37,933 nucleotides of DNA, taken from positions 1 through 37,933 of IMG/VR virus record IMGVR_UViG_3300045988_053041; one strand, 5' to 3'. The DNA comes from a virus. The notes beneath the pieces were generated by a model. It was not told where the DNA came from and did not search any database. It was given only the letters and a program-made list of their open reading frames with translations. Positions within the stretch are counted from its first letter, which is position 1. Each line of letters opens with the position of its first letter. A program made the position numbers and the translations under genes. Shown piece by piece: positions 305 through 33,699 of the stretch.

Positions 305-2005
305 TTAGCCCGCCTTCGCGGTCACGCTGCCGGAGCCGACCGCAACCGCGCGGCCGTTGCCGTCGACCTCAACCACGGTAATGGTCTGGCCGGTCGTGCC
401 GTCGACGGTCTTATTCGCGGGCAGGTCTGTCCAGAGCTTATCAAGCGTCTCGCCGTTTGCGACTGCGATCGCCTGCCCGGCAGTCTGGTACTTGAGCTTG
501 CCGGAGCCGTTGCCCGCGACGGTCACGACGCTCTTGCCGTTGGCAGAGCCCGCAGCGGTGGTAACAATCAGCGTGCCGATGGCGGAGTTTGCAAGGTCCT
601 TGCCGAAGGTCGTTGTCTTGGTGGGCTCGACGTTGCCATAGTTTACAAGGACAAACGCCTCGCCGATGGCGGGCTTGCCGTCGCGGCGCTGGAGGCCCTT
701 GAAGCAGGTCTGGTTCTGAAGCCAGCGCACGTTGGTGTTGGAGTCGATGACCGTGCCCTCGCGCTCGACCGAACGGTACAGGCTAAGGAAGCCGCCCGCG
801 ATCTCGTTGTCCGGCATGACTTCCCACTCGACGATCTGACCGCCGACGACCGGCATAATGTCGCCAACGCCAGGGACCATCGCCGCAGCGGAATTGTAAG
901 CCAGCGCGCGGGACTTGATGTCCATGTGTGTCTTGCGGTTCATCGTCCAGATAACCGTGCCGTTGGAGTAGTCGGGCTTTGCAACAGCCAGTGCCGCAAC
1001 AAGCGCCTGGAAGAACTCCGTACTTGTCTTTGCGGCAAGATCAAGTTTCAGAATATGGCTGGTATGTAGGTCGGTGAATTCGCCCTGCTGCGCGCCCCAC
1101 CATGCGGGCTTCGTCGTTGCAGCCAGGCGCGTGATAATGCCGACCGGCATTTTTTCGCCCGTACCGAACCAGATAGACTTGTCGATTGCCTTGGCAAGGG
1201 AGGATGCAAGCGCCTGAAGGATGCTCGTCGCGAGCTGAAGGTCGCTGTCGTCCATCAAAACGGCGTTAGGAACGGCCATATAGCCGCCGACCATGTAGCC
1301 GTCCATGGTGAGCTGCCAGAAGTTGATGTCGAGTTCGTTGAGCGCGTCGGTCATTTCCGTCCAGATGGCTTCCGGCGCAACGCCTGCGACGTTCTGACGG
1401 GTCGTGCCGCGGAAGGTCGTCGTAAAGCAGTAGCGCAGGAACTTCGATTCCTGATACGTCAGGTCCCGCAAAATCGGCAGGAAGCCGTCCGGAATACCCA
1501 GCTCGCCGCCGGTGACGCTGCGCTGCTGGGCGCGTGCCTCGCGGACATTCTGAAGGAAAGTGCGGACCTGCTCGGACTGCATGAGCGCGTCGCGCTCGGA
1601 GTAGGTGAGGCCGAACCAACGGCGCTCGGTGGGATTGCTCATAGGTACAAAGCTCCTTTCGTGGTGATCGTTGTTTCTGGTGTCAGAGTTGGACACCGCG
1701 GGTGCTGCCGGGGGCGGGGTCTGCTCGGCTTCCAGCCGGGCAATTTCCGCGCTGCGGGTGTCGATCTCGCCCTGGATACGGGCAATCTCGGCGGCGTTCG
1801 CGCTGCGCTCCTGCTCAAAGGTATCCACAGCCGAGGATACAGCGTTGCGCTCCTCGTCGGTGCTCGTCTCAGTGATCTCGCCGAGCGCCTGGCGAAGCTG
1901 CTCTTCTCTCGCGGCAAAGCCGTCTCTCGTCTGCTCCAGCGGTCTCAGCTGCGCACGAAGCGCGGTGATCTCGCTGTTCAGGACTAAAACTCTAAGTGCT
2001 GCCAT
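305..2005 (-). CDS. Major capsid protein, HK97 family, with N-terminal coiled-coil (delta/scaffold-like) region and C-terminal Ig-like extension
   Basis: Track ORF 305..2047. I place the start at ATG 2005 (MAALRVLVLN...), 9 nt after AGGAGG and overlapping the protease TAA (TAATG). The order portal-protease-capsid and the HK97-like core support the call. Confidence 0.9.
   Translation of the reverse strand: MAALRVLVLNSEITALRAQLRPLEQTRDGFAAREEQLRQALGEITETSTDEERNAVSSAVDTFEQERSANAAEIARIQGEIDTRSAEIARLEAEQTPPPAAPAVSNSDTRNNDHHERSFVPMSNPTERRWFGLTYSERDALMQSEQVRTFLQNVREARAQQRSVTGGELGIPDGFLPILRDLTYQESKFLRYCFTTTFRGTTRQNVAGVAPEAIWTEMTDALNELDINFWQLTMDGYMVGGYMAVPNAVLMDDSDLQLATSILQALASSLAKAIDKSIWFGTGEKMPVGIITRLAATTKPAWWGAQQGEFTDLHTSHILKLDLAAKTSTEFFQALVAALAVAKPDYSNGTVIWTMNRKTHMDIKSRALAYNSAAAMVPGVGDIMPVVGGQIVEWEVMPDNEIAGGFLSLYRSVEREGTVIDSNTNVRWLQNQTCFKGLQRRDGKPAIGEAFVLVNYGNVEPTKTTTFGKDLANSAIGTLIVTTAAGSANGKSVVTVAGNGSGKLKYQTAGQAIAVANGETLDKLWTDLPANKTVDGTTGQTITVVEVDGNGRAVAVGSGSVTAKAG
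1680..1696 (-). repeat. 17-bp element copy 1 (plus strand GTGTCAGAGTTGGACAC), in the capsid gene linker
   Basis: Read directly. The gene strand gives GTG TCC AAC TCT GAC AC = VSNSDT. Confidence 0.9.
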
Positions 2006-2598
2006 TACGGGTTTCCTCCTAACTTCTTGTTCATTTCTGCGCGCCACGTTTCCAGGCGGCGCTTTTCGATTGCCTCAAAATCCCGCTTCCGGGCGCTGAC
2101 CGAGGTCTGCTCGTAAGCCGGGAAGGTGCAGACGCTGACCTCATACAGCGGGTCGATCTCTTCGATCTCCCAGCGGTATTTCCCATTGCCGAGGTCGCGG
2201 AAGGTCTCACTCTTGATGGCAAAGCCAAACGAGCACTGGTCGACGTCTCCGCGCTGGACTCTTGCATACAAGTTCATCGCGTCCACGTCGTCGCGGTTGA
2301 TACGGACGCTGCCCCAGAGGCCGCGCTCGTCCTGTTTGAGCGTCAGCGTGCCGGATTTCGTCCGGCCGAGAACTAAGCTCGTGTCGTGGTTGATGAGAGC
2401 TCGAACGTCGCCCGAGATCGAATTTGTGAAAGCGCCGGGCTTGATAATCTCGCTCACATCGTCCCACAGGGGATACTCCGAGTTAAAGACCGCAAAGTAG
2501 CCCTCAATGTAGAGGTCGCTCTCGGCTTCGCGCGTCTGAAACGCCTGCGGGATGCAGCGCACCTGACGCTGCTGTCTATTCTGTTCCACCGTCTCCAC
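2005..2598 (-). CDS. Prohead (HK97-family, S78-like) maturation protease
   Basis: Translation ...DLYIEGYFAVFNSEY...ALINHDTSLVLGRT...GDVDQCSFGF... is typical of HK97 prohead proteases. The gene lies between portal and capsid. The start may be GTG 2598 or GTG 2589. Confidence 0.88.
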   Translation of the reverse strand: METVEQNRQQRQVRCIPQAFQTREAESDLYIEGYFAVFNSEYPLWDDVSEIIKPGAFTNSISGDVRALINHDTSLVLGRTKSGTLTLKQDERGLWGSVRINRDDVDAMNLYARVQRGDVDQCSFGFAIKSETFRDLGNGKYRWEIEEIDPLYEVSVCTFPAYEQTSVSARKRDFEAIEKRRLETWRAEMNKKLGGNP

Positions 2599-3769
2599 CT
2601 CCTCCTTGTGTAAGCTTTTTCTGGTCTGCGATCATGTCGCGCGGGATGTAGTTTTCCAAAATGACGAGCTCGTTGAGCCCTTCCTTCGGACTGAGGCCGA
2701 CCCAGTCGCGCACCTCGTTGCCGGTCATAAGTCCGCGCACGTAGAGGTTGGATGCTACGTCCGCGAGCTCCTTTGTGCTGTAGCTGTAGAGCCTGCGCGT
2801 CGACATCGTAAAATAGAGGTCGGTCGCATAGAGGAGCTTGCGCGTCAATTCCTGGCAAATGATGTTTGCGATTGTCGTGGCGGTCGTCTTGATCATGTGG
2901 TTGTGCTCGCTGTCCGAGTACGTCCCCACGCCCAGCATGAAAGGGGTCACGCCGACGAGCGCGGCCACGGCCTTTTTGTCGAGTTCCACGCCGTCCTTGA
3001 TGGCCAAGTCCGAGAGACTCAGCGGCTTGACCTGCTGCACGTCCATGAGGTCGGCCGGGACGATCCACGGCTCGCCCGCGCTCGAGCCCGTGATGTAGTC
3101 GTCGATCAGACGGCGGCGGCCTGCCGGGTCGGAAAATTCATCGGCCAGCGCGTCGACCTTGACAATGACGCTGGGCTTCCATTTGTCCGACATAAAGCCC
3201 TTCTTCGTCGCCTGCTCCTGCCGGAGCGAGTTGACCACGTCAAGCAGGCTCATCCGGAGCCCGAGCCCCTGCCACGGGTGGTCGGGGTCGACCCAGCGCC
3301 GGAACTGGAGGACGGTCTCGGGGTCGTACTGATGGCCGCGCCAGCTGATGTAGACTGTCTGGCCTTCGTCCGGGCTCATCGCCTGCGCGCCCGGCATGGG
3401 GATAAGGTCGCGAAGCAGCCCGTCCCGCGTGACCGGAAGGATGAAGGCCGTACCGCTGGCGCTTGTGAGCATTGCCCAGACGATGGCAGAAATCAAATCC
3501 TTGCGCGTGCCGAAGTTCCACGGCGAGATGTCCATAAACCGGGAAAGCGCGTTCCGCACGCGCACATCGCCGTCCGGCGTATTCTGCATGAGCTGAATGG
3601 TCGCGTTCGACACGATGTCGGCAAGGCCGCCGACCGCGGCCAACACGTCCGGACTGTCAGCGAGCCTGCAATAGCCCGGCACGCCAAGCGTGTCCTGATC
3701 GACCGCGCCGATCACAAATTTTCGCAGCGCGTCGTCCTGCGCGGATCTGCGCTGCACCTTTACTTTCAA
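2576..3769 (-). CDS. Portal protein (HK97 family)
   Basis: 397-aa ORF with a TTG start at 3769, 7 nt after GGAGGTG. It has a portal-like sequence and sits upstream of the protease. It ends in TAG. Confidence 0.88.
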   Translation of the reverse strand: MKVKVQRRSAQDDALRKFVIGAVDQDTLGVPGYCRLADSPDVLAAVGGLADIVSNATIQLMQNTPDGDVRVRNALSRFMDISPWNFGTRKDLISAIVWAMLTSASGTAFILPVTRDGLLRDLIPMPGAQAMSPDEGQTVYISWRGHQYDPETVLQFRRWVDPDHPWQGLGLRMSLLDVVNSLRQEQATKKGFMSDKWKPSVIVKVDALADEFSDPAGRRRLIDDYITGSSAGEPWIVPADLMDVQQVKPLSLSDLAIKDGVELDKKAVAALVGVTPFMLGVGTYSDSEHNHMIKTTATTIANIICQELTRKLLYATDLYFTMSTRRLYSYSTKELADVASNLYVRGLMTGNEVRDWVGLSPKEGLNELVILENYIPRDMIADQKKLTQGGGGDGGTE

Positions 3770-4414
3770 GTGGCATCACCTCCAAACAGCGACAGCTGCG
3801 CTGTGTATCGTTCAAAACGGTCTTCTTCCGCGGCAAAATAGTCTGCGTCCAGCTCGCACCCCACGAAATCAAGCCCCGCGTCATATGCCGCAATCCGACT
3901 TGAGCCGCTACCAAGGTGCGTATCAAGGATTCTGTCGCCCGGCTTTGCGTATCTGGCAAAAATCCAAGCATAGAGGGCGACAGGTTTCTGCGTTGGGTGG
4001 ATCGTCCATTCGCCGTTGCGCGCACCTCCGGCCGCACCGTTCCACGGGATGTCGGCAATCAAAGTTTTTCGGTCAAAGGATGTCCAGCACATTTCCGCGC
4101 TGGCAAAAGTCAAGCATTCCGGGACATGTTTGTCCCATATCACCCATGACCGCGTCAGCGGGAGCTGGAAGTAATTACCCCCCCCAGATGCATTGATTCT
4201 TGCTTACGCGGAAGAGTTCCTCAAAGTATGCTGGGGGCGGGACAGCCGCATCCCACGTTTTCTTTTGCCGCCGTGGGTTCTTTGCGTTAGCCCGTCGTCC
4301 GGCGTTGCAGTTGATGTTAATCCCGTAAGGTGGGTCGACAACGGCGAGGTCAAATGCCTTGTCAGAGAGCGTGCGCATGTACTCCATGCAGTCCATGTTG
4401 TATGCGACGTTCAC
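3766..4414 (-). pseudogene. Beta-class (DPPY ... TQKP ... DxxxGSGS) DNA N6-adenine/N4-cytosine methyltransferase split by a frameshift in a G8 tract
   Basis: Track ORFs 4175..4414 (…VVDPPYGI…NQCIWGG*) and 3766..4143 (…IWDKHV…HPTQKPVALY…DTHLGSGSS…) are the two halves. Removing one G from the run gives the continuous IWGGNYFQLPLTRSWVIWDKH. Confidence 0.85.
4178..4185. repeat. C8/G8 homopolymer at the methyltransferase frameshift point
   Basis: gtaattaCCCCCCCCagatg. The premature TAA (4175-4177) follows immediately on the minus strand. Confidence 0.95.
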
Positions 4415-6534
4415 GCCTTTGCCTCCTCCCGTGTTTCATACCAGCCTGCGCCCTTGGCGCTGGCGGTCAGGTCCTCCAGATATGCGCACGCGGCAAAGAC
4501 CGAACAGTCAAAAACATCGATGCGCAGGTTTGGAGCTATTTTTTCGTACATCACCATATCGTCGGCCTTTTCAATGCCGGCAACGTTTTGCACGCAGTAC
4601 TCATAGGGCTCTGCGTGCAGGTAATAGAGCGTGCCCTGCTTCGCGCTCTTTTCCAGGTACCGGAAGCCCTCGGACTTGAGCGTAAAGCGCTGAATCTGCG
4701 CCTTGATGGGGAAGCGCTCTTTCTGCATCTCCACAAAATACTCGCGGCAGAACTTCGGGTCGTGCCCGACGCGGCGGATTTTGAAGCCCTCGGCGCGGCG
4801 TTTTTTGAACCAGCGCACAACGTCGGAGTGGTTTGTCACCTTGTCGTTCGTCATGTCGAGCCAGCCGTCTTCCATCCAGCCAAAGAGCGGTATCTGGTCT
4901 TGCGTCGCTTTGACCACGGCGGCCGGCCGCGGGAACCAGCAGTGCGGGATGATGATGTCCACGCCCTTGTAGTGCCCAAACAGGCAGCAGGCCGTGAGGT
5001 CGTGCATCTTGGAAAGATCCGCGCCGCCGTACCAGCGGATGGGGAGCTTCGCGAGCTCCTGGAGCGTCCAGTTGTACTTCTCGTCCGACCGCCGGAACTC
5101 CTGGATGTCAAACCAGGCTTTGACGGCGTTCGTCGTGACGTTGAGGCTCTTGTTGAGATATTCCGGCCGGAGCATCGGGTTCTCGGCCGCGATGGCCGCG
5201 TCGTTGATCATGTCCTGCGGCCGGATGGAGTAGCCCCAGCCGGGGCTTGCGGCCTTGAGGACCGCCGGGTCATGGAGATCCACATCGCCGTTTTCCATCG
5301 TCGGCGCGGAGCACAAAAAGCAAAAGATCGTGTCGGCGTAGTCACCTGTGACCGTTCCGCGCAGAATTTTCCGGCAGAGTTCCAGATGCCCAAGCAAGAA
5401 GCCGCGCGCGTTGGGGCCGTTGGATGAAATGATAATGACAAGCTTATTTGTGTACGCCTTTGTCGCGTCCTTGAGGATCTGGTACTGCTGCGGGCTCTTA
5501 TAGGTGTGCGCTTCGTCGGCGATGACGATGTTGCAGTTAAAAGAGTCCTGCTTGTCGGGGTTGGCTGCCAGGGCGTTGATGGAGATCATGCCGTCGCCGA
5601 CATCGCCGGAGATCGACCGCTCCATGTTGTTGTCGATGATCCGCAGGCCCGTCTCCGGCTCATCCTTGACGGTCACGCCCAAGCGCGTGCAGTTGTACTT
5701 CAAAAAGTCAAAGCCCTCGAGTGCCTGCTTTAGCGCGCCGCCGACCTCGTACACCTTCGAGCCGGACGCTCGCTCATAAAGTGCCAGGGCAAAGGCCAGC
5801 GCGGCCGCAAACGTCGTCTTGACGTTTTTTCGCGGGATGAAGTCCACAGCTTCCTTGAAGCGCCGGATCTTCGTGCCGGGAAGGTAGAACCCCATGATGT
5901 TGTAGACAATGAACTTGTGGTACGGCAGGAGCAGGAACGGTGTGCCGCGCAGGGGCGTCGCGTCCAGGAACTCGCCCTGCTGGTGGCAGATCATCGTCTC
6001 GATGATGGCGATGATCTCGTTCGCGGGCTCCGTCCGGAATTCCCACTTGCCGGTGTCCAAGTCTGACACGTACCGTTTGCAGGCAAGCACCGCGTCCTCG
6101 CAGAGGCCGTTTTCTCCGGAGAGCGTCGCTTCGACAAAGCTGTCGACCTCGCGCTGGTACTGCGCGGCGTGCTCTTCGGCGTGGCTCTTGGACTCGGAGA
6201 GCAGCTGCTCAAGTTTGCTCGCGCCGCCCATCGGGACGCTCTTGGCGCGCGCCTTGTTAAGCCCCGTCGGCGTGAGGCCGAGCTGGTTGCGCAGGCCCTG
6301 CACCGTCGCGCGAAGATCCTCGACCGCTGTCCAGTACGGGCTCTTGGCTGTGTACTCCGCGCCGGTCTTGTTGACCATCGTACAGATGCGCTGCCCGCCC
6401 TGCTTCTTCCACTCTTTCTCGGCGCGGGAGAGCTCGCGCTCCGTCTTGGCCAGCTGCTTGATCGTCGGCTCGAATATTGCGTTGTAGGTGCCGACAAGCT
6501 GCATGTCCTGCCGGATCATGTCCTCTCGCGCCAT
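4411..6534 (-). CDS. terL: Terminase: small-subunit-like (P27/Terminase_4-like) N-terminal ~140 aa fused in frame to a large subunit (Terminase_1-like)
   Basis: Track ORF 4411..6627. The likely start is ATG 6534 (MAREDMIRQD...). The N-terminus ...NKTGAEYTAKSPYWTAVEDL...QLGLTPTGLNKARAK resembles small terminases. The remaining ~565 aa is TerL-like, and no stop separates the two parts. Confidence 0.85.
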   Translation of the reverse strand: MAREDMIRQDMQLVGTYNAIFEPTIKQLAKTERELSRAEKEWKKQGGQRICTMVNKTGAEYTAKSPYWTAVEDLRATVQGLRNQLGLTPTGLNKARAKSVPMGGASKLEQLLSESKSHAEEHAAQYQREVDSFVEATLSGENGLCEDAVLACKRYVSDLDTGKWEFRTEPANEIIAIIETMICHQQGEFLDATPLRGTPFLLLPYHKFIVYNIMGFYLPGTKIRRFKEAVDFIPRKNVKTTFAAALAFALALYERASGSKVYEVGGALKQALEGFDFLKYNCTRLGVTVKDEPETGLRIIDNNMERSISGDVGDGMISINALAANPDKQDSFNCNIVIADEAHTYKSPQQYQILKDATKAYTNKLVIIISSNGPNARGFLLGHLELCRKILRGTVTGDYADTIFCFLCSAPTMENGDVDLHDPAVLKAASPGWGYSIRPQDMINDAAIAAENPMLRPEYLNKSLNVTTNAVKAWFDIQEFRRSDEKYNWTLQELAKLPIRWYGGADLSKMHDLTACCLFGHYKGVDIIIPHCWFPRPAAVVKATQDQIPLFGWMEDGWLDMTNDKVTNHSDVVRWFKKRRAEGFKIRRVGHDPKFCREYFVEMQKERFPIKAQIQRFTLKSEGFRYLEKSAKQGTLYYLHAEPYEYCVQNVAGIEKADDMVMYEKIAPNLRIDVFDCSVFAACAYLEDLTASAKGAGWYETREEAKA
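6053..6069 (+). repeat. 17-bp element copy 2 (GTGTCCAAGTCTGACAC), in the terminase gene
   Basis: Read directly. The gene strand gives VSDLDT. Confidence 0.95.
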
Positions 6535-6827
6535 GCTTAGATTTCCTTTCTCTGAGACTCTGCCAGACGCAGCGCGCGAACGCCGCGTCCAGTCAAAAAA
6601 GGAGGATGATGAGATGACTCCGGGCACCGGCGGTGGTTCCCAATGCCGCCGAGCTGAACTGCGCCCGGCAGAGCCTCAGATGGTTTGCGTCTTTGCGCGC
6701 CCGCGTCGTTTGCGCCCGCGCCGCGCGATTCGAGATTTTCGCGCGTGTGCGCGCCTGGCGGTCTCGTCTGAACCCCCTCCCGCGGTTTTCCCGCCGTCGG
6801 AAAGAGGGCCCCACTCCGGTGCTCCGA
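6535..6827. other. Non-coding gap between HNH and terminase; candidate cos / terminase-recognition region
   Basis: ~290 bp with no credible ORF; the only translations are Arg/Ala/Pro-rich. It contains short direct repeats such as TTTGCGCGCCCGCG / TTTGCGCCCGCGCC. The HNH-cos-terminase layout is typical of HK97-like cos phages. Confidence 0.45.
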
Positions 6828-7118: not shown

Positions 7119-7122
7119 GGGC

Positions 7123-7162: not shown

Positions 7163-7192
7163 ATCTTGCCGTCCGGCTATCACCTCGGATGT

Positions 7193-7458: not shown

Positions 7459-7510
7459 AAAAAGTTCGCTCCTCTCGTAAGATATAGTAAAGACCCAAGT
7501 TATTAAAGGC

Positions 7511-8227
7511 TTACGCCTTTCGCTTTTCCCTGTTTCGCCAGGGAAGCTTGTAGTCCACATAATAATAGCTGCCGAACTTGTTTTCCTTCGCCTCGGGCTC
7601 TACGTCAAAGGCCTCTTTCGGTGGCACAGGCCGGTAGTTGTCCGGGACTTTTTCGACAGTGATGCGTGGTTTTTCAAGGTTCCGTGATGGCGTCCACAAT
7701 CGGTCGCCCACATATTCCCGTCCGTGCTGCATCGGCTCTTTGGTCAGATACTTTGCCAAGCCAACAAAGCCGAGCTTCCCGACGGGCTCCCAGTTGATAT
7801 CGCCGTCCGGCCAGAGCTTGCGGAGCACTTCCGTCTCGCCGGGATAATGGTTGAGGATGATGTGGTGATGCAAACGCTTGTCTCCGTGCCGGCCTTCGGT
7901 GGTGTACAGATATTTGTAAGGCCGACCGAAGGCTTTGCGGCTCTCGCGCAGCTGACGGTTAAAAAGCTTCACCCGCTTCTGCGCGGCGAAGGTGTTCGGC
8001 GGCTTGTGCGCCTCGTCGTAGGTGAGCGTGAGCAGCCAGTCCGAATACGTAAAGTTTGCGGCGATCAGAAACGCAAGCCGCTCATAGGCGTGGCGAATGT
8101 TGAGCTTTTCGCGGATGGTTGTCTGCGGCAGGCTCTTCGGCGCTCTGCCTCGTCGCTTGGCCAGCGGCTCGGTGAACACGCACTCGCGGCATAAGACGGA
8201 TGTTTTCATGGATACAAGATAGCTCAC
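7511..8227 (-). CDS. HUH-superfamily rolling-circle replication initiator (Rep)
   Basis: Three RCR motifs are visible: WLLTLTYDE (motif 1), RLHHHIILN (HUH) and GLAKYLTKE (catalytic Tyr). GTG start at 8227 after AGGAGG. Confidence 0.75.
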   Translation of the reverse strand: MSYLVSMKTSVLCRECVFTEPLAKRRGRAPKSLPQTTIREKLNIRHAYERLAFLIAANFTYSDWLLTLTYDEAHKPPNTFAAQKRVKLFNRQLRESRKAFGRPYKYLYTTEGRHGDKRLHHHIILNHYPGETEVLRKLWPDGDINWEPVGKLGFVGLAKYLTKEPMQHGREYVGDRLWTPSRNLEKPRITVEKVPDNYRPVPPKEAFDVEPEAKENKFGSYYYVDYKLPWRNREKRKA

Positions 8228-8343: not shown

Positions 8344-8682
8344 TCATTTTTTCTTGCGCCGGGTGGATACCTTTTTGTAATTAAATTCCCGGATGTGCGG
8401 GTTGCGCTCGCGGAACGGGACAAAATGCGCGCCGCAGGCCTTGCGGAGGATCGCGTCCAGCCGTTCTTGCAGCCAGTCGGCTTCCGGGCCGCAGCCGTAT
8501 GCGCCGTCAAATTCCGTGTCCAACTCGGACACGCGGCACGCCAGCCGGTAAAGCCGCTCTTCGCCGAAGCCCTCCTGCGCGAGCGCTGCGAGAAACATGT
8601 CGGAGACTTTCTGCATACCTGCCTCCACGCCGATCTCCATCGCCGCCCGCCCAACCGCGTCCAGCTGGTCAACGTATTTCAA
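8344..8682 (-). CDS. Hypothetical early protein (contains 17-bp element copy 3)
   Basis: C-terminal part of track ORF 8344..8835. Possible starts are TTG 8682 after AAGGAGGGGG, or ATG 8640. No recognisable family. Confidence 0.55.
   Translation of the reverse strand: MKYVDQLDAVGRAAMEIGVEAGMQKVSDMFLAALAQEGFGEERLYRLACRVSELDTEFDGAYGCGPEADWLQERLDAILRKACGAHFVPFRERNPHIREFNYKKVSTRRKKK
8516..8532 (+). repeat. 17-bp element copy 3 (variant GTGTCCAACTCGGACAC), in an early hypothetical gene
   Basis: Read directly. The gene strand gives VSELDT. Confidence 0.85.
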
Positions 8683-8851
8683 CGCGCGTCTTCCCCCTCC
8701 TTGCGTGCACGGCCAACTCCTGATAAATGCCAATCTTGAACAAAGTCCACCGGCCAAAGTAGGAGTTCCGATTCTGCGCAATGTGGTTTGCCTCGTTGCG
8801 GGGCATCCCCAGCACGCCCATGCAGAGCTTTGCAAATCGTTTTCGTGTCAT
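8669..8851 (-). CDS. Hypothetical small early protein
   Basis: ATG 8851 lies 6 nt after AGGAGG (MTRKRFAKLCMGVLGMPRNE...). It is part of track ORF 8669..8953. Confidence 0.6.
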   Translation of the reverse strand: MTRKRFAKLCMGVLGMPRNEANHIAQNRNSYFGRWTLFKIGIYQELAVHARRGKTRVEIR

Positions 8852-11055: not shown

Positions 11056-11063
11056 AGCCCCTC

Positions 11064-12759: not shown

Positions 12760-13090
12760 CAGCTACCTCCTCGCATTCTTCCTGCCGGACGATCGTCCGG
12801 TGCTTTTCATCGAGCGTCACAATGTAAGTCGCGCGGATGCCGTCGCAGCATTGCTGCTTTTGCGCCTTGTAGACCTTCCCGGGCTTGAGCTGGAATTCCG
12901 GGAAGACCGGCAGCGGCTTTGCCACGCGGATGCATACCGGGACGGCCTCCTTCTTGCGGTACTGCGCCGGGATGTAATTTACATTCTTCGCCCGCCGGTA
13001 GCACTCCCGGCAGCAGTAGACCTGATCGGTCCGGTACGTCGTGAAGAGGTTGCCGCAGCCACGGCATTGCCGGAACAGCTGCCTGCTCAT
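12752..13090 (-). CDS. Zinc-ribbon protein
   Basis: MSRQLFRQCRGCGNLF...YCCRECYRRA.... ATGA overlap with the parB stop. Confidence 0.65.
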   Translation of the reverse strand: MSRQLFRQCRGCGNLFTTYRTDQVYCCRECYRRAKNVNYIPAQYRKKEAVPVCIRVAKPLPVFPEFQLKPGKVYKAQKQQCCDGIRATYIVTLDEKHRTIVRQEECEEVADE

Positions 13091-15395: not shown

Positions 15396-15408
15396 GGTGT
15401 TTTCTCCT

Positions 15409-18678: not shown

Positions 18679-18706
18679 GAACACCTCCCTTAAAATATCT
18701 TGTATG

Positions 18707-18719
18707 GTGATATTATCAC
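18707..18719. promoter_or_regulatory. Candidate operator palindrome GTGATATTATCAC overlapping the early -10
   Basis: Perfect 6+1+6 inverted repeat. A related ATTATC-N9-GATAAT lies at 18776-18797 over the divergent promoter. Confidence 0.55.
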
Positions 18720-18738
18720 GTGATGCATTATTTGTCAA
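18710..18738 (-). promoter_or_regulatory. Early (PR-like) promoter TTGACA-17 nt-TAATAT
   Basis: Minus strand: -35 TTGACA (18738-18733) and -10 TAATAT (18715-18710), with a 17-nt spacer. Confidence 0.7.
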
Positions 18739-20657: not shown

Positions 20658-20782
20658 TGCTGCAAGCAGTGTGGGAGCCGCCTGTGAGTATAGCTTACAA
20701 CGCGGCAAGCGGGAATGTCGAGAAAGCATCATTGTAAATTGTACCCAGAATCGCATTATTTAGGAAAGGAATCTTGCTGAGA

Positions 20783-21256
20783 ATGTCGGAATTATACGAA
20801 ATCTGTCGAGAAAAAAAGGAAAACACGGCGCCGCGTATCACAAACCAGGATCTTGCCGAAGCAATCGGCAAATCAACAACCACTGTTGCGCAGTTCCTGC
20901 GCGGAGATGCCCCAAACGCGTCCTACGACACAGTGCTTGCGCTGTGCCGTGAGCTTGGGGTGTCAGTAGACGAATACAATGGACTGCCGCATGAGGTTCC
21001 GGACCCGAACCCCGCGCTGCTGGAGCGGATACACAGTCTGGAGTCAGAGCGCAAGGCATTGGCCGATGCGTTAGAACGGATGAATGAGCATCTGGTGACT
21101 TGCAAGAAATCGCTGAAAATGCACCGTTTCGTAACAACTGTCCTGCTGTCCATGTTTTGCCTTGTGCTTCTCGCGATCATCATCGACCTGCTGGACCCGA
21201 ATGTCGGCTGGATTCGCCGCGTGTCCCATATCGGCATGCAGTGGCTGAATCTGTAA
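20783..21256 (+). CDS. Membrane-anchored XRE-type HTH protein (HTH, coiled coil, C-terminal TM)
   Basis: ...ITNQDLAEAIGKSTTTVAQFLRG... followed by ...FVTTVLLSMFCLVLLAIIIDLL.... The start is ATG 20783 or TTG 20774. Confidence 0.7.
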   Translation: MSELYEICREKKENTAPRITNQDLAEAIGKSTTTVAQFLRGDAPNASYDTVLALCRELGVSVDEYNGLPHEVPDPNPALLERIHSLESERKALADALERMNEHLVTCKKSLKMHRFVTTVLLSMFCLVLLAIIIDLLDPNVGWIRRVSHIGMQWLNL

Positions 21257-21258: not shown

Positions 21259-21275
21259 GTGTCCAAGTCTGACAC
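21259..21275 (+). repeat. 17-bp element copy 6 (GTGTCCAAGTCTGACAC), intergenic and abutting the integrase SD
   Basis: TAAcgGTGTCCAAGTCTGACACGGGAGGtttgtATG. Confidence 0.95.
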
Positions 21276-24215: not shown

Positions 24216-24244
24216 TTGACATATACGGGCAAACCGTATATAAT
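24216..24244 (+). promoter_or_regulatory. Perfect consensus sigma-A/sigma-70 promoter TTGACA-17 nt-TATAAT with A/T-rich upstream element
   Basis: TTGACA at 24216-24221 and TATAAT at 24239-24244. The upstream sequence is aaataatttgattttttaaaaataatg. Confidence 0.85.
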
Positions 24245-24301: not shown

Positions 24302-24571
24302 ATGAAAGCTACTATTTATGCAAACTACGGAATGCTCGCAGCTGAAAAGCGCTGCATCTACACCACGGCCGAAACCGACGCCACCGTCTCCGAGCCGCTT
24401 GACGTCATCATCCCCGAGAAATTCGCCCCGGCGAAAAACGCTGCTGACGAGATCGTCGTCACGCTGAACGGTTACAATTATCGCTTGCAGGATGTCCTGT
24501 GCGGCGACGAACAGCCCTGCATCATGGTCCCGGGATACACCACCAGATACGAGCGGCTCGCTCGTGCCTAA
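24302..24571 (+). CDS. Moron gene A, hypothetical 89-aa protein
   Basis: AGGAGG-8nt-ATG (MKATIYANYGMLAAEKRCIYTT...). Inner part of track ORF 24212..24571. Confidence 0.7.
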   Translation: MKATIYANYGMLAAEKRCIYTTAETDATVSEPLDVIIPEKFAPAKNAADEIVVTLNGYNYRLQDVLCGDEQPCIMVPGYTTRYERLARA

Positions 24572-24591
24572 GCCAAAGCGAGGGAATCCAA

Positions 24592-25071
24592 ATGCCAACT
24601 GAGGCACAAAAACGCGCCCGGAACAAGTGGGACGCGGAGAACCGCACCGTGATCGGGTGCAAGATGCGGCGAGAAGACGCGGAAGCGTTTAAGGCCGCCG
24701 CGCAGGAAGACGGAACAAACCCCAACGAGCTCTTGCGCGGCTGGATCGGGGACTACATGAGCAGGGAGGAATCAGACATGACGAATGACCAAATTCAGGC
24801 GCTGGCGACGATCTTTGCGATTTGCCGCAAGGCCACGAAAACACAGATCCAGAGCGACATTGACAACGCGCAACGTTACCCCATCAAATGGGCGACCATT
24901 ATGGTGCGCAAACTCCACGCGATGGGCAAGGCAACGGACGATATCGACCGCGCAATCGCCGAGCAGTACGGCAAAATCGACATCGATACGTTTACGGCCA
25001 ACTTTGACAAATGCCTCACGCTCGAGCAGCAAGGCGTTTGGAGCCTTGCATTTTATAAGGCAATGCAATAA
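24592..25071 (+). CDS. Moron gene B: ribbon-helix-helix-like N-domain plus unknown C-domain
   Basis: MPTEAQKRARNKWDAENRTVIGCKMRREDAEAFKAAAQEDGTNPNELLRGWIGDYM has a strand-helix-helix pattern. An in-frame internal GGGAGGA-7nt-ATG lies at 24778. Confidence 0.7.
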   Translation: MPTEAQKRARNKWDAENRTVIGCKMRREDAEAFKAAAQEDGTNPNELLRGWIGDYMSREESDMTNDQIQALATIFAICRKATKTQIQSDIDNAQRYPIKWATIMVRKLHAMGKATDDIDRAIAEQYGKIDIDTFTANFDKCLTLEQQGVWSLAFYKAMQ

Positions 25072-25487: not shown

Positions 25488-25492
25488 AAACA

Positions 25493-25524
25493 CCCGGTGT
25501 CCAACTTGGACACCGGGTATTTTA
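25493..25524. terminator. Bidirectional rho-independent terminator built from 17-bp element copy 7
   Basis: CCCGGTGTCCAA-C-TTGGACACCGGG. The plus strand continues TATTTTATAT and the minus strand TGTTTTTATCC. It lies between convergent genes. Confidence 0.8.
25497..25513. repeat. 17-bp element copy 7 (perfect palindrome GTGTCCAACTTGGACAC), core of the bidirectional terminator
   Basis: Read directly. Confidence 0.9.
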
Positions 25525-26971: not shown

Positions 26972-26972
26972 A

Positions 26973-27272
26973 CTAGCCTCCCAGCCCCGCCAGGGCCAGC
27001 GCGTAGCCGACCAGCCCCGCGACGATCGCTGTCACGGCTGCCTTGATAAGCCCCTCCCAGCGGCTGCCGGGGAGCGCCTTGAGGGCTTTCACGTCGGTCT
27101 TGATCTCGTTCACGTTCGACTCGATCGTCTCCTGCTTCGTCGCCAGCACTTCTACGGAGGTGGCCAGCTGGTGAAGCGCCTTGTTGTCCGCCTCGAGCTC
27201 GTCGATGCGGTGCTGGTTGGATTTGCAGCGCGCGTCGATCGCTGTGACCTGCGCCTGAATTCCGTCGTCCAT
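26973..27272 (-). CDS. xhlA: XhlA-like lysis-associated protein (coiled coil + C-terminal TM)
   Basis: ...NQHRIDELEADNKALHQL... followed by ...AAVTAIVAGLVGYALALAGL. Confidence 0.7.
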   Translation of the reverse strand: MDDGIQAQVTAIDARCKSNQHRIDELEADNKALHQLATSVEVLATKQETIESNVNEIKTDVKALKALPGSRWEGLIKAAVTAIVAGLVGYALALAGLGG

Positions 27273-27302
27273 ATCTGTCTCCTTTCTCGCCCGGAGGCGG
27301 CG

Positions 27303-27704
27303 TTATACTTTCTTCCAGACCGTCGGGGCGACCGTCGGGGTAAACACATTCCCGTCCATGAGCGACTCATAGAGGTTGCCGCCCCACCATCCCTTCTCGC
27401 CCTTTGCGAAGGCCAGTGTGGAGGTAATTACTTCGGGGATGATTCTGTATCCGCCCCGGTACTGCACGTCCTCCCAGAGCGTAGACGCTTCGTCGGGCGT
27501 GTTCTGTGCGGTGTCCCAGAGGTCGACGGCGGCTTTTTTGATCTTGCCGTGCCAGTTGATGCGCGTGCCCGCTTTGACGAGGCTGCCGTCGCCGGTCAGC
27601 GTCCCCAGCAGCTCCGGCGCGAGGCTGACAGTCTTGTCATCCAAAGCGCTTGCCGCCTGCTCGATGTACGGGCGCATTTTCTTCGCCCTCTCCGTGTACG
27701 TCAT
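27303..27704 (-). CDS. Hypothetical tail-module protein
   Basis: 133-aa ORF with a strong SD, between the fibre genes and the lysis cassette. Confidence 0.6.
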   Translation of the reverse strand: MTYTERAKKMRPYIEQAASALDDKTVSLAPELLGTLTGDGSLVKAGTRINWHGKIKKAAVDLWDTAQNTPDEASTLWEDVQYRGGYRIIPEVITSTLAFAKGEKGWWGGNLYESLMDGNVFTPTVAPTVWKKV

Positions 27705-27973
27705 GCCTTGACCTCCCCAAGCAAGATCTTCGCTGCCGTCTCGGTATCTGTTAGCCGCTCACGCAGCTGCTCCGGGTTTGCCGTCTCGATGTCAAAATCG
27801 TCTGTGACGAGTTTGCTGGTTTCCTTGTAGGTGTACGGCGCGCCGTCAACGTCGATGGCCTCGGCGTATTCAACGCCCGTCTCCACCTGCCGGATGAGAT
27901 AGCCCGCATCCGAGTACGTTTTGTACAGCTCCACGCCGTCCGTGCGCGTTTTGTAGTGCTCTTTTACGATCAT
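27701..27973 (-). CDS. Hypothetical tail-module protein
   Basis: ATG 27973 (MIVKEHYKTRTDGVELYK...). Inner part of track ORF 27701..28030. Confidence 0.6.
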   Translation of the reverse strand: MIVKEHYKTRTDGVELYKTYSDAGYLIRQVETGVEYAEAIDVDGAPYTYKETSKLVTDDFDIETANPEQLRERLTDTETAAKILLGEVKA

Positions 27974-27975
27974 CT

Positions 27976-29334
27976 TTACACCCCCACAATATGGTCTGCC
28001 AACGAGCTCCAGTTTGTTGCCGCTTTCCACGCATCCGCCAGAGACGCGGGCACTCGGATCTCCAGCTGCGGGTGCGTCTCATTGAACGCGTTGACGTTGG
28101 CCAGCGTGGGAACGGCCGTACAGTGGGTAAAGTCCACAAACCGCAGCGTATAGCATCGCAGGAACACCTGCGCCGGGATGCTCGCGATGTCCCCGAGGCA
28201 CGTCACCCTGCGCAGCGCGTGGTCGCCCCGAAAAGCGGAAGCGACAAAGGTTGTAGCGTCCGCCGGGATGGTGACTTCCAGCAGAGACACGCAGGAATAA
28301 AAAGTTCCGACTTGACCGTCGACAGCCTTGATGTTGACGCGCTCGAGGCATTGTGCCATGTAGGCAGCAGTCATATCAAAATTTACCAGCCGGACTGCTG
28401 TATATGCGATGTCGTAATTATTACCATTTCTTTGCGTCATCCCTTTCGGTGTTGCGATTGCGCGGAGATTGACGCAATTATAAAATGTTTGGATGATCGC
28501 AGAACTAAAAGCCACTGTTACGGCGCGTATACTTGTAGCTTCTTCAAACGTTCTCCCCGGTTCGAAAAGCACGCCAGCGGGGACAGATATGCTCTCGAGC
28601 CGGGTGGCGGCAAGAAACGCCCGTTGCGTAACGTCGGTCATTCTTTCACCGATTTCCACCTTTGCAAGCATCGAGCAGCGGCCACTATCTGCTGTGCTGT
28701 TTGCAATCAGCATTCGATCATTTGAGCCATTTCCAAGCTTCATCTCCGCACCCTCTTTGACGCTCATAGTGATCACGTATGAGCCGCTGGATGCGTACAC
28801 ATGCCGATGTTCAATCCAAGAATCGGCATTTTTTGATTCCGGGGTCGTTCCGTCGCCCCAGTCAACAGTCGTGGCGTTTCTTGTGCTCTGCCAGTAATTC
28901 AAGACAAAATCGTCCCACGTCTCGGTATCCACGTCGACGTAGAGCCTTGTCTTGCCGTCATCGGTAATATACAGCGCGCCGATATCGAGCTCACGGCCTG
29001 CGTCCTTGATGTCTTGGAGCGTCCAGTTCCATCCCTGACAGACCAGTCCATCGTGCGACGGAAGGGGCGGCAGCTCGGTCTTTGTGGCCAGCTCGGCGAG
29101 TGTCCAGCTGTAGAGCAAAGTGCCGTCATAGTCCCAGAAATTGATGTCCGACTCCTCGGGCGGGGTGGTATCTAACGTGCCGGTGATCTTCGCGCCCGAA
29201 GCGTCGTGCGCCGTCACGCCGGATTTGAGCGTCGCAGGAGTGACGGTATCCTCGGTCAGGTCGATGAGTGTTTTTCCGGCGTAGACCACCTTGTTTCTCG
29301 GGGTTTCACCCCCAGATACTTCCGGTGCCGCCAT
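27976..29334 (-). CDS. Tail fibre / receptor-binding protein with BspA-type leucine-rich repeats
   Basis: 452 aa. The C-terminal half has repeated ...AF..C..L..V.IP... units. The N-terminus GKTLIDLTEDTVTPATL...GT is paralogous to that of the next gene. Confidence 0.75.
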   Translation of the reverse strand: MAAPEVSGGETPRNKVVYAGKTLIDLTEDTVTPATLKSGVTAHDASGAKITGTLDTTPPEESDINFWDYDGTLLYSWTLAELATKTELPPLPSHDGLVCQGWNWTLQDIKDAGRELDIGALYITDDGKTRLYVDVDTETWDDFVLNYWQSTRNATTVDWGDGTTPESKNADSWIEHRHVYASSGSYVITMSVKEGAEMKLGNGSNDRMLIANSTADSGRCSMLAKVEIGERMTDVTQRAFLAATRLESISVPAGVLFEPGRTFEEATSIRAVTVAFSSAIIQTFYNCVNLRAIATPKGMTQRNGNNYDIAYTAVRLVNFDMTAAYMAQCLERVNIKAVDGQVGTFYSCVSLLEVTIPADATTFVASAFRGDHALRRVTCLGDIASIPAQVFLRCYTLRFVDFTHCTAVPTLANVNAFNETHPQLEIRVPASLADAWKAATNWSSLADHIVGV

Positions 29335-29338
29335 ACGC

Positions 29339-29926: not shown

Positions 29927-29929
29927 AAT

Positions 29930-30461: not shown

Positions 30462-30467
30462 ATCACC

Positions 30468-30689: not shown

Positions 30690-31729
30690 GCAATCACCGT
30701 CCTTTTTGCGGTATGGGTCATGAGCTCTCCGGGGCTGAGCCGCAGCTGCCAGCCGGTCTCCTCGTAGATGCCGCCGAATTCCGACGCGTCGATGCTCAGA
30801 ACGTCGCCCACGCCGTGCCCACCCTCCGGCAGGCCGTAGAATGTGATCGTCCGGGTACCGAGCTGGGACTGGAAGCAAAGATCGTCCACGTAGGCTTGCA
30901 GCGCCTCCTGCGAGGCGATATTGTCCACTTTGACCACCTGCGTGATGCGTTGGCCGCGCTTAAAAATGGAGATGGAGCTGGACGGGCTGTTGTTCTCTGC
31001 GCGCGCTACCAGCGGCGTCTCCAAGTCCGGATTGCTGCAAATGGCGACAAAGACATTCGGCGCGTCGAAGATGTCCTGCTCCTGCGACATATCGCGCGAG
31101 ACGGGAGCCAGCAGCCGGATATCCGTGCTCGAGTAGCGCCAGCGGATATTTGCCGCATTTGGTGTTGCCTTTGGCTCCAGGTGCCCGATGCCGCTGCCGT
31201 CGAACCACACGGGCTTGTAGTTTATCTCGCCCAGCAGCTGGTTGCAGATCGTGAGATAGTCCGTGCCCTCCTGCCAGTCCTCTCGGTCGGTCTGCAAGGT
31301 CTCGCTCGTGGGTGTGGCGATCACGAGGCCGATCCCGGCCTGCGTCATGAGCTGCTGCACCGCCGTCAGATAGTTCGTGCCGGCGGCCAGATGCAAAATG
31401 CCCTCCGTCTTGATCGTCTGGATCATCCAACTGCGGTCGTACGCGTCGAGCCGGAGGAAGTGCCCCTGCGCGCTGACGGTGTCCGAGTACGTCGTGATGC
31501 GGTACACGCCCAAGGGGTACTCTTGCCCGTCAAGCTCCAGCACAGGCTGGAGCTCGTCGGAAAGATATTCGATATCGGGGTTGTGCATAAATGTTCCGCC
31601 GAGGCTTCCCATGATGTCTCCGGACGCGTCGACGAGCACGTCGGGCGCGGAATCTTTGAGCCATCTCAGCTCTGAGAACTTCGCGCCGTGCCGGAGCACG
31701 TCCACGCGGTAAGATATCCTGTGCGTCAT
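30686..31729 (-). CDS. Tail-associated (Tal-like) minor structural protein
   Basis: 347 aa. It is the second gene after the tape measure, the expected position for Tal. Confidence 0.65.
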   Translation of the reverse strand: MTHRISYRVDVLRHGAKFSELRWLKDSAPDVLVDASGDIMGSLGGTFMHNPDIEYLSDELQPVLELDGQEYPLGVYRITTYSDTVSAQGHFLRLDAYDRSWMIQTIKTEGILHLAAGTNYLTAVQQLMTQAGIGLVIATPTSETLQTDREDWQEGTDYLTICNQLLGEINYKPVWFDGSGIGHLEPKATPNAANIRWRYSSTDIRLLAPVSRDMSQEQDIFDAPNVFVAICSNPDLETPLVARAENNSPSSSISIFKRGQRITQVVKVDNIASQEALQAYVDDLCFQSQLGTRTITFYGLPEGGHGVGDVLSIDASEFGGIYEETGWQLRLSPGELMTHTAKRTVIA

Positions 31730-33699
31730 AGCCTCACCTCGTCGTCAAAGTCGATCTGCTCGATGGTAAAATTAAAAACATTGAGGAAGCCGTCGTGTTG
31801 CTTGGGTAGGCTCGTGATGTAGCCGATGACCATATCGCCCTGCGGCGTTTTGGCGCAGACAAGCTTTCCCACAAGTCCCATGAGCTGCCTGATCTCGCTC
31901 TCATCGAGCAGCACCGCCGTGATGCTGAGCGAATCCGTGCCGGAGTCGACCTCGACCGCGACGGGATAATACGCGCCGGAGAGCTGCAAGAGCTCGACCT
32001 GCCGGGAAAGTGTCCGTGTGGTCTGCCGGTGCTGGCTGTCGGAGTATGGGAGTCTCAAGGTCTGGCCGGTGTCCAAGTCTGACACCTGATGCACCTCCGC
32101 GCGAACGTCGACCGTGACCGCCGAAGACAGGCCGTAGTTGCCGGAATCGTTGTAGCAGCCGCGCACCTGGTACGTTGTGCTGCCGGAGGACAGCTCGTCG
32201 GTGTACTGCGTCTGGGTGAGCTTTGCAATCGGCTTTTCGTTTCGGTACACGAGATAGAAATCATAGCTCCCGGTCGTCTGCCAGCTGAGCTCTGCGACGC
32301 TCGATGCCTCGACGTTCAGCGAGATTGCCGCGCCCGGCGTGTTGGTGACAGGCAGCGCCGCCGCGCCCCAGTTGGACCACATGCCATATTGATTTTGCAC
32401 GCGCACGCGCACCGTGTGGCTGCCGTCCGAAAGATACGCGGGGCTCGTCCATGTCTTCTCCGTGCCGTAGTGCGTGCCGCCGGAAAGCTTCCCGTCCAGC
32501 TCCACCTGGTACGCCTCCTGCTCGGAGGTCTGCCAGCTGATGGACGGGCGCGGACCCGTGCTCTTGATCTGGATACTCGGAGCCGTCGGCGCGGCAATCA
32601 CAACGATCTGTGCCGCATCACTCCATTCTCCCGCAATGCCGTCGGCGTTGTAGGTGCGCACGCGCCAGTATTTGATGCTGGATGTGAGCGTCCCGGCAGG
32701 GCACGTCCACTGCCGCGCAGCGCCGGTGACGGTTGCAAGCGTCGTCCATGTCTGCCCATCCGTGCTTTTTTGCAGGTCTGCCTTGCTCTGCGCTGTCCCG
32801 GTTGAGATCGAGTGCTGCCACTGGAACAGTACATCCTTCGAGCCATCAATCACCGTGTCGACCGGGCTCAGAGGCGCGGCGGTCGGCGTTGCATCGGCGG
32901 TTGAGAGCGTCACCCAGTCGGATGTTGTGACCACGCCGCTGTTTGCCGTGACCGCGACCTGCCACTGGATGCTCGTCGTGCCAGTGAAGGTGTTGGCGGG
33001 TACCGTGACGCTTTGTGCGCTGCCGGAGACGGAGATCGTGTGGATCGTGCCGCTCGTGCCGGAGCGCCAGCGGAAAACGGCAGATGTCTGTTCCAGTACA
33101 GCGATACATTTTAACGCGGGGTCTGTACCCCATGCGAAGGTGTTTGGCTCTGTTTTTACAATAGACCCCGAACTCGGCGTTGTCTCGAATATTTTTAGCC
33201 CACAGGTTATCGTATCGTCCACAGTCACTGGAATATATGGCCGGTTTGCGCCTGCTGTAACGATTGACGCAAAATCCATAGATACCGATATATCGATAAA
33301 CACGCCCTTTTGCACCGCGTCAGGAATCGGGAGCCCATATGTCGACTCACACAGTTTCGGGAGGTCTTCAGCGTAAACGTTTTTCGTCTCGACTTTGCTC
33401 ACGTGGAAACGCTGCTTGGTAGCATAGGTAGCGGTAAGAGGGTCGAAGCGCTCAGTCAAGGTACCTATTTTTAGGTTGACTGTGTCGTTTTCGCCTGCTG
33501 CCTGCACATATACGTTGATTTTTGTCCAATCGTCAACAAGCTTTTTGTACTGCTTCCCGTCGCTAGGCGACTGGAATTGCAAGTACAGTAAATCGCGATA
33601 GTAGAGCTTTGCTGGGGAGGTTGTGTGGTCGTTGACGTTTTGCGCGTCATTTTTCAAGATCGCAAATGCCGAACAGTACAGATTAAAACTCGTTGCCAC
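31726..33699 (-). CDS. Distal tail protein (Dit-like) with fibronectin-III-like repeat insertions
   Basis: 657 aa, immediately downstream of the tape measure. It has repeated ~90-aa segments ending ...W..V.T.N..G..GEWS.. (FN3-like). GTG start. Confidence 0.7.
   Translation of the reverse strand: MATSFNLYCSAFAILKNDAQNVNDHTTSPAKLYYRDLLYLQFQSPSDGKQYKKLVDDWTKINVYVQAAGENDTVNLKIGTLTERFDPLTATYATKQRFHVSKVETKNVYAEDLPKLCESTYGLPIPDAVQKGVFIDISVSMDFASIVTAGANRPYIPVTVDDTITCGLKIFETTPSSGSIVKTEPNTFAWGTDPALKCIAVLEQTSAVFRWRSGTSGTIHTISVSGSAQSVTVPANTFTGTTSIQWQVAVTANSGVVTTSDWVTLSTADATPTAAPLSPVDTVIDGSKDVLFQWQHSISTGTAQSKADLQKSTDGQTWTTLATVTGAARQWTCPAGTLTSSIKYWRVRTYNADGIAGEWSDAAQIVVIAAPTAPSIQIKSTGPRPSISWQTSEQEAYQVELDGKLSGGTHYGTEKTWTSPAYLSDGSHTVRVRVQNQYGMWSNWGAAALPVTNTPGAAISLNVEASSVAELSWQTTGSYDFYLVYRNEKPIAKLTQTQYTDELSSGSTTYQVRGCYNDSGNYGLSSAVTVDVRAEVHQVSDLDTGQTLRLPYSDSQHRQTTRTLSRQVELLQLSGAYYPVAVEVDSGTDSLSITAVLLDESEIRQLMGLVGKLVCAKTPQGDMVIGYITSLPKQHDGFLNVFNFTIEQIDFDDEVRL
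32069..32085 (+). repeat. 17-bp element copy 8 (GTGTCCAAGTCTGACAC), in the Dit-like tail gene
   Basis: Read directly. The gene strand gives VSDLDT. Confidence 0.95.

Follow-up and report, generated by a model that had tools for sequence, protein, structure and literature searches.

IMG/VR virus record IMGVR_UViG_3300045988_053041, analyzed here at its full length of 37,933 nt (the window), encodes a temperate siphophage with a G+C content of about 59% and the majority of its genes on the minus strand. The genome is closed and circular; at least 50 nt are common to the two ends of the window, and relatives have uninterrupted sequence across the end-to-start junction. Our subject is a 17-base-pair (bp) quasi-palindrome in this genome, GTGTC-MRASTYK-GACAC (in general form GTGTC-N7-GACAC), and its relation to the ParA and ParB proteins of the phage. 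A scan of the window with the pattern GTGTCMRASTYKGACAC, in which up to two mismatches were tolerated, revealed exactly eight copies of the element (shuffled sequences give 0.03) and no degenerate copies besides. The 16-bp pattern GTGTC-N6-GACAC had zero matches in the window, and the element is 17 bp long. One identical 17-mer, GTGTCAGACTTGGACAC or its reverse complement, accounts for five of the eight copies, which are located as follows.

1680–1696: GTGTCAGAGTTGGACAC, in the capsid gene (305–2047), codons 118–123, minus-strand reading VSNSDT
6053–6069: GTGTCCAAGTCTGACAC, in the terminase gene (4411–6627), codons 187–192, minus-strand reading VSDLDT
8516–8532: GTGTCCAACTCGGACAC, in the open reading frame (ORF) 8344–8835, codons 102–107, minus-strand reading VSELDT
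13313–13329: GTGTCAGACTTGGACAC, distal copy in parB (13087–14604), codons 426–431, minus-strand reading VSKSDT
14537–14553: GTGTCAGACTTGGACAC, N-terminal copy in parB, codons 18–23, minus-strand reading VSKSDT
21259–21275: GTGTCCAAGTCTGACAC, intergenic, between the TAA of the cI-like repressor gene and the GGGAGG ribosome-binding site (RBS) of the integrase gene
25497–25513, within 25492–25518: GTGTCCAACTTGGACAC, a perfect palindrome, intergenic, between convergent genes
32069–32085: GTGTCCAAGTCTGACAC, in the tail-protein gene (31726–33699), codons 539–544, minus-strand reading VSDLDT

The eight sites are about 1–7.5 kb apart (the largest gap is 7.5 kb), and their spacing is more even than that of random points on a circle (P = 0.014). 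The host ORFs are real: four of the five have Pfam or PHROG matches, and the fifth, ORF 8344–8835, has translated homologues with 39–44% identity. Two of the copies lie in parB, which forms an operon with parA.

14598–15527, minus strand: parA, Walker-type ParA ATPase (AAA_31, E = 3.9e-39; CbiA; NCBIfam ParA_partition)
13087–14604, minus strand: parB (PF02195, PHROG ParB), with ParB_N, a GHRR motif, a helix-turn-helix (HTH), a Cys-rich region and a variable C-terminal domain

The stop codon of parA overlaps the ATG of parB. Both genes belong to a replication module, whose other members are an HTH_36 initiator-like protein and a DnaB helicase.

Reading phase of the intragenic copies

Six of the eight copies lie in frame within minus-strand ORFs, and six-frame translation combined with the ORF coordinates confirmed that each of them is read as V-S-x-x-D-T, as stated in the original prediction, which had been made from the window sequence alone. 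It had also noted, correctly for the major variant, that five of the six combinations of orientation and phase are free of stop codons. However, its conclusions that nothing forces the choice of phase, and that six agreeing copies would have a probability of about (1/3)^5, did not hold. We compiled a codon table from 7,200 codons of confident window genes and used an independent-codon model to obtain the chance of each phase. The probability of phase 0, in which GTG is the first codon, was high for every variant.

VSDLDT form: 0.936
VSKSDT form: 0.998
Capsid variant: 0.997
ORF 8344 variant: 0.994

Phase 2 would require TGT (Cys), TGG or ACT, and ACA, whereas phase 1 would run into a TGA stop in one orientation and, in the other, would require AGA, CTT and GGA. 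The product of the phase 0 probabilities over the six intragenic copies is about 0.87. We also carried out a model-free check with the elements masked, for which near-matches to the full 17-mer were used because counts of the 5-mer half-sites were too few for a phase null after masking. In confident genes, 23 of 27 near-matches with up to six mismatches were in phase 0, as were 10 of 12 with at most two arm mismatches. Given the bias in codons and in near-matches, the agreement of six copies out of six is unsurprising; its probability is about 0.4–0.9. Codon usage and amino-acid tolerance produce the constant phase as a by-product, and the phase itself has not been selected. In this genome, which is rich in G+C at third codon positions (GC3), GTG TCN NNN NNN GAC ACN is the only cheap reading, and therefore every intragenic copy appears as V-S-x-x-D-T. 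A null of 1/3 per phase is badly wrong for a specific oligomer in such a genome, which calls for caution in similar analyses.

Related genomes, which had been proposed as the place to look for other phases, gave the same picture. An exact 17-mer scan of IMG/VR yielded 105 stretches, most of them relatives with 70–95% identity on contigs of ~37–38 kb. Orthologous copies are conserved at all eight positions, and each position has a central variant of its own. When retention was counted in relatives that had not been selected through the variant concerned (flanking identity about 0.88–0.95), the non-query copies were intact in 13 of 16 cases for the capsid site and 9 of 12 for ORF 8344, and in all seven relatives for the site at 25497. 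All fetched loci pooled contained 407 distinct copies, of which 131 were deep inside ORFs, representing 31 unrelated sequence contexts. Phase 0 was found in 30 of these 31 contexts; there were one genuine exception and one artefact. The sole genuine exception (L195:8292–8308) is in a terminase homologue, where the site is read in phase 2 as V-C-P-T-W-T-H. The phase census across the family fits the codon null. The L195 copy lies about 4 codons from the position of the terminase site of the window and was independently acquired. Two acquisitions at nearly the same spot hint that this place is predisposed by its sequence or favoured for its position.

About half of the copies in relatives could not be placed inside a confident ORF. 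Those candidates for phase 1 or phase 2 that were inspected showed the order stop codon, site, RBS, start codon. Phase-1 copies that would be read as G-V-R-L-G-H-R were rejected as coding, as every one is preceded by a stop codon and followed by the RBS of the next gene. The same stop-site-RBS layout is that of the copy at 21259, and it recurs in relatives. Many genic copies are a few codons ahead of the stop codon.

Conservation of the element in DNA and its protein settings

To compare codons, we used 25 parB genes that had been fetched by protein similarity, independent of the element. Codons 18–23 were nearly fixed in this set (GTG in 24/25, TCC in 22/25, AAG in 21/25, TCT in 21/25, GAC in 25/25 and ACC in 23/23). 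In contrast, Ser8, Gly24 and Arg25 of the same genes each use three or four synonymous codons. In the tail protein, the exact 18 nucleotides are kept in a homologue (L023) of only 50% identity. The hexapeptide itself is widespread in ParB. A sample of 150 representatives of the ~500-residue ParB family, 33–67% identical to the window protein, contained V-S-x-x-D-T near residues 11–30 in 72 sequences and V-P-x-x-G-T, V-P-x-x-D-T or V-S-x-x-G-T in a further 37, in agreement with what the original prediction had stated about the N-termini of such proteins; some representatives have tandem hexapeptide copies.

Among these representatives, mirror positions of the element co-vary. A change of S to P alters arm position 4 (T to C), a change of D to G alters the mirror position 14 (A to G), and the two residue pairs, S/P and D/G, are associated with an odds ratio of 13 (Fisher p = 4.5e-7). 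The inner pair also co-varies, K/N with L and D/E with S, with an odds ratio of 4.3; both tests were computed without phylogenetic correction. The data support the idea that the element is a DNA-level site which is borne in genes as a hexapeptide. This part of the original prediction, a DNA site accommodated as a tolerated peptide, was thus borne out by the near-fixed parB codons and their variable neighbors.

A further claim, that the copies fall in linker regions, was true for some proteins and false for others. The structural model of ParB has a mean predicted local distance difference test score (pLDDT) of 89, and its only segments below 50, residues 18–22 and 430–436, match the two hexapeptides. 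The distal copy is present in about half of the close ParB homologues and lies in an indel-rich linker after YLLGLTDEL. The capsid copy, too, is within a Pro/Ala-rich stretch where relatives have gained and lost residues; the settings in the capsid and tail proteins were judged from alignments and Pfam coordinates. The terminase copy does not fit the claim: it terminates a confident helix (residues 150–165 of the trimmed protein, pLDDT 91–94), and the real low-confidence linkers of that model are residues 101–110 and 192–196. Terminase homologues with 67–96% identity mostly have [LR]-R-D-L-x-N at this place (VSDLDT in 14/120), and so the site was made there by several amino-acid replacements around a conserved D-L. 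More generally, whereas the capsid copy and the distal ParB copy occupy indel-prone stretches, the sites in the terminase, ORF 8344 and the tail protein are in gap-free aligned segments and originated by substitution, not insertion. In some relatives, the ORF 8344 copy has decayed to VSELDA or AAELGA.

It could be argued that the reading phase itself is selected, with V-S-x-x-D-T having a role in the protein (for example, as a ParA-contact or modification motif) or with the phase being obligatory. That 30 of the 31 independent intragenic contexts are in phase 0 and that the peptide is nearly universal at the ParB N-terminus would agree with this. However, the codon null already gives 94–99.8% phase 0, two of the eight window copies and roughly half of those in relatives are untranslated, and the terminase homologue with VCPTWTH reads its site in phase 2. 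The structural settings are also unrelated (disordered in ParB, a helix end in the terminase), selection at the protein level does not explain the frozen synonymous positions, and the co-variation of S/P with D/G tracks the mirror symmetry of the DNA. We therefore consider selection of the phase very unlikely.

The palindromic co-variation would also fit a stem, and instead of binding a protein, the element might form a hairpin in RNA or DNA that, for example, terminates transcription, is processed by an RNase or modulates translation near the RBS. The copy at 25492–25518 has extended arms (ACCCGG...CCGGGT) and a T-run and, located between convergent genes, scores as an intrinsic terminator in a consensus scan, and many intergenic copies are 0–10 nt upstream of a GGAGG RBS. 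However, the dominant variant GTGTCCAAGTCTGACAC pairs only at its 5-bp arms and has two internal mismatches, yet it is identical in five copies. It is the identity of the sequence, and not mere pairing, that is conserved down to 30% ParB identity, and asymmetric variants that break the stem, such as GTGCCC...GGACAC, are common. Moreover, copies occur in both orientations relative to transcription, the other copies whose flanks were read are without a T-run, and an Rfam scan of the window found no known RNA family. A hairpin function is thus unlikely.

ParB proteins that accompany the element

The window ParB matches PF02195 over residues 26–120 (E = 7.8e-10), and its profile matches include solved structures of Noc, ParB and Spo0J. 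Its N-terminal half has the ParB/Noc/KorB fold with an HTH, as detected by Foldseek with the model; target-normalized template-modelling scores (TM-scores) were 0.75–0.78 for the Caulobacter crescentus ParB-parS structure (6t1f), 0.74 for Noc (7nfu) and 0.67 for KorB (8qa9). In the SGHRR motif, G81, R83 and R84 are invariant in 80 family members. The features of a ParABS system that were found are ParB_N with a GxxR motif, a ParB-fold HTH, an adjacent cognate ParA and repeated palindromes in or near the operon. The family also has a cysteine cluster at residues ~253–303, between the HTH region and a long helix (residues 308–354), in which C259, C281, C286, C287, C290 and C303 are invariant and C253 is nearly so. 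This pattern suggests a metal-binding module that is absent from canonical ParB.

We collected 80 Oscillospiraceae loci only through ParB alignment (ParB 30–74% identical to the query). They contain 258 matches to GTG[TC]C-N7-G[AG]CAC, compared with about 4.5 expected, and the family consensus of the site is GTGyCCrA-N-TyGGrCAC. In most of these loci the best palindrome of the parB 5' region is the element, in phase 0 and usually at codons ~12–25, and ParA is directly upstream of ParB in 73 of the 80. The reverse search gave a corresponding result: 15 of 20 IMG/VR stretches with at least three copies, found through the perfect palindrome, carry a ParB homologue. With respect to parB, copies are most frequent at 0, at +1 to +2 kb and at −6 to −10 kb, and 33 relatives have zero sites 2–5 kb upstream of parB, where the initiator, DnaB and ParA genes are located. 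Five loci have tandem arrays of two to four units with a 37-bp period downstream of parB.

L146:12832–12959
L142:12489–12579
L139:7183–7236
L151:2623–2676
L160:2124–2177

The arrays that were read in sequence (L146 and L142) end right at the RBS of the next gene. Such arrays resemble a classical centromere or operator array.

The variants of the site are locus-specific, with GTGCCCGAnTCGGGCAC throughout L165 and GTGTCCAATTTGGACAC throughout L175, and ParB residues 171–172 follow them. The recognition helix S-A-P-K-L goes with A at site position 7 (mean G fraction 0.14, n = 19), and S-[KR]-[ST]-K-L with G at this position (mean 0.55, n = 32; Mann-Whitney p = 3e-6, uncorrected for phylogeny). 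A contact of Lys or Arg to the guanine at position 7 would be physically sensible.

Relatives of the phage are found inside chromosomal contigs as long as 4.4 Mb; one of these sequences is the complete Oscillibacter valericigenes genome. Another relative, Flavonifractor phage Cormatin, was described as a prophage induced from F. plautii YL31, an OMM12 strain (PMC10197239). Its ParB (WAK79880) shares 42.5% identity with that of the window, and the phage has four copies of the element, one at the same N-terminal place. In the Cormatin record (L130, ON453905.1), the ParB homologue at 27019–28569 is annotated as a hypothetical protein and no integrase is listed. A megablast search of INPHARED with 25 kb of the window gave no match, and relatives were reached only by protein-level search.

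Taken together, the element is probably a parS-type DNA site of the phage's own ParB, the product of the parA-parB operon. A ParB dimer would recognize the two half-sites through its HTH and would afterwards be loaded as a CTP-dependent clamp, as expected from analogy with the solved ParB, Noc and KorB proteins. With eight sites about 1–7.5 kb apart, ParB may be able to mark or cover the whole 38-kb genome. The function could be segregation of an excised or replicating form together with ParA, or control of nearby genes in the manner of KorB or BisD, or both. In such a tightly packed genome, sites would persist only in short gaps or in genes where their translation is harmless.

Several observations weigh against this assignment. 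The link to ParB consists of co-occurrence and co-variation, without phylogenetic correction, and ParA, DnaB and a Rep-like protein travel in the same module, so that co-occurrence alone fails to single out ParB. With 17 bp and an odd center, the site does not resemble canonical parS, which has 16 bp. The copy at 25497 additionally has the appearance of an intrinsic terminator, and with many intergenic copies abutting an RBS, a role at the level of RNA or translation also fits. In the ParB HTH, no convincing determinant was found for site positions 4/14 (T:A versus C:G); these positions are probably degenerate (Y/R), since many loci mix both. Finally, besides DnaB and initiator-like genes of its own, the phage carries a tyrosine integrase, and relatives reside in large chromosomal contigs; partition of the classical plasmid type is thus not obviously needed, and the role may be to stabilize the excised or replicating form, or control of the KorB/BisD kind.

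Other genes of the phage are as follows.

20774–21256: cI-like HTH repressor (Pfam/PHROG)
18475–18738: RstR-like repressor
Directly after the 21259 copy: tyrosine integrase (Pfam/PHROG)
4411–6627, minus strand: TerS-TerL fusion terminase (Pfam/PHROG)
305–2047, minus strand: capsid (Pfam/PHROG)
2005–2598: likely protease (gene order only)
2576–3769: likely portal (gene order only)
31726–33699, minus strand: tail protein (immunoglobulin-like domains and a PHROG virion-structural match; other tail genes were assigned from position only)

A 17-bp palindrome suits any dimeric HTH protein, and ParB could merely co-travel with an operator of another regulator, such as the cI-like or RstR-like repressor or the HTH_36 initiator. 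One copy is right after the cI-like gene and ahead of the integrase gene, one related locus (L100) has copies in and beside its repressor gene, and sites cluster 6–10 kb upstream of parB, in a regulatory region. However, homologues of the repressor and initiator were detected in only 25–29 of the 80 ParB loci, although nearly all of these loci carry sites (ParB is present in all 80 by construction). In addition, the most conserved copy is inside parB itself, the recognition-helix residues of ParB track the site variant, and both the 37-bp arrays and the copies scattered through structural genes are unlike operators. There is, therefore, only a small chance that the palindrome belongs to another regulator.

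Packaging sites (pac-like sites for the TerS-TerL terminase) or targets of restriction-modification or recombination are extremely unlikely. One copy is in the terminase gene just past the TerS-like part, and the distant terminase homologue in L195 has its independent copy about 4 codons away, which might be taken as a sign of packaging. However, eight dispersed copies are not pac-like, and loci with the site in common have widely different terminase and structural genes (median terminase identity 24%). Neither a methyltransferase nor a restriction enzyme was detected among the window proteins scanned, and phages usually lose restriction targets instead of conserving them.

Some features of these and other genes deserve mention in their own right. 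The terminase has an N-terminal small-subunit domain, Terminase_4 (residues 41–125), fused to the large-subunit ATPase and nuclease domains, an architecture common to homologues of ~711 residues; its true start is probably ~27 codons downstream of the first GTG. The C-terminal domain of the major capsid protein (residues 499–577) resembles the C-terminal domain of the S-layer protein SbsC and may represent a fused surface decoration. A REP_ORF2-G2P domain protein (7511–8227, minus strand), related to rolling-circle replication proteins, is conserved alongside DnaB, ParA and ParB in 43 of 47 large loci, which gives the phage a second, different initiator-like protein. A perfect sigma-70 consensus promoter (TTGACA, 17 nt, TATAAT; 24216–24244, plus strand) lies upstream of the plus-strand gene 24499–25071, whose product is a ribbon-helix-helix-like protein.

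Comparison with known ParB systems and possible roles

A ParB with dispersed parS-like sites on a phage is a kind of system already known; as far as could be found, there is no earlier description of this particular ParA-ParB pair and its site. Like phage N15, the window phage is temperate, has a ParA/ParB pair and carries several single inverted repeats at separate places instead of one array. The inverted-repeat (IR) sites of N15 reportedly are dispersed and lie in or near genes. SopB binds four natural ones, IR1–IR4, whose sequences have been given (PMC7205306), and these four separate sites are the closest phage precedent. However, N15 is a linear plasmid prophage without an integrase and needs partition, whereas the window phage encodes a tyrosine integrase, and its relatives occur integrated into chromosomes. 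The sites differ as well (GTGCGACCnnGGTCGCAC in N15 and GTGTCCAAnTTGGACAC here), and SopB is a type Ia ParB, whereas the ParB described here is closer to chromosomal ParB and Noc and has, in addition, the Cys-rich region and an extra C-terminal domain.

The closest matches by sequence and fold are chromosomal ParB/Spo0J proteins, with which the window protein shares ParB_N, the HTH and an adjacent ParA. Chromosomal parS sites are palindromic and often inside genes, and in Bacillus subtilis one is said to lie inside spo0J. However, the 17-bp GTGTCCAAnTTGGACAC and its close variants share only palindromy with the 16-bp tGTTNCACGTGAAACa, the embedded copy at the 5' end of parB falls in a disordered N-terminal linker, and the protein is twice as long.

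KorB of plasmid RK2 is a ParB-family CTPase of similar fold (see the TM-score for 8qa9 above). It binds about a dozen short odd-length palindromes scattered over RK2, near to or far from promoters, and serves both partition and global repression. The sequence of its OB site is unrelated to the element, host and element type differ, and no KorA-like partner was identified here. As with the window protein, the ParB-like BisD is encoded by an integrated mobile element. BisD of ICEclc is a CTP clamp that loads at the parS-like bisS, slides for tens of kb and controls genes of the element (PMC12409273). It differs in having an activator domain, a partner (BisC) and only two bisS sites, whereas the phage has eight. 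Many copies of the element, including that before the integrase gene, are placed between a stop codon and the next RBS.

A more specific proposal can be built on these comparisons, which we regard as possible but doubtful. The evenly spaced sites, together with the fixed copy in the parB linker, might act as a grid of loading sites, with ParB-CTP clamps spreading from it over the whole prophage to silence, activate or fold it (by KorB/BisD-like action or recruitment of SMC), and would not serve plasmid partition. The copy embedded in parB might then provide direct feedback on parB expression, and the sequence of the site may have been shaped to be codon-friendly and so to colonize coding DNA.

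The findings point to a large prophage ParA-ParB family in gut Oscillospiraceae (Flavonifractor, Oscillibacter, Intestinimonas and others), whose 17-bp site can be read from the genomes. With the copy in the 5' end of parB kept down to about 30% protein identity, the family offers a natural series for the study of how ParB specificity evolves, and Cormatin in the OMM12 strain F. plautii YL31 offers a cultured test case. The family also provides a way to explore the purpose of a ParB/parS grid in a prophage capable of integration.

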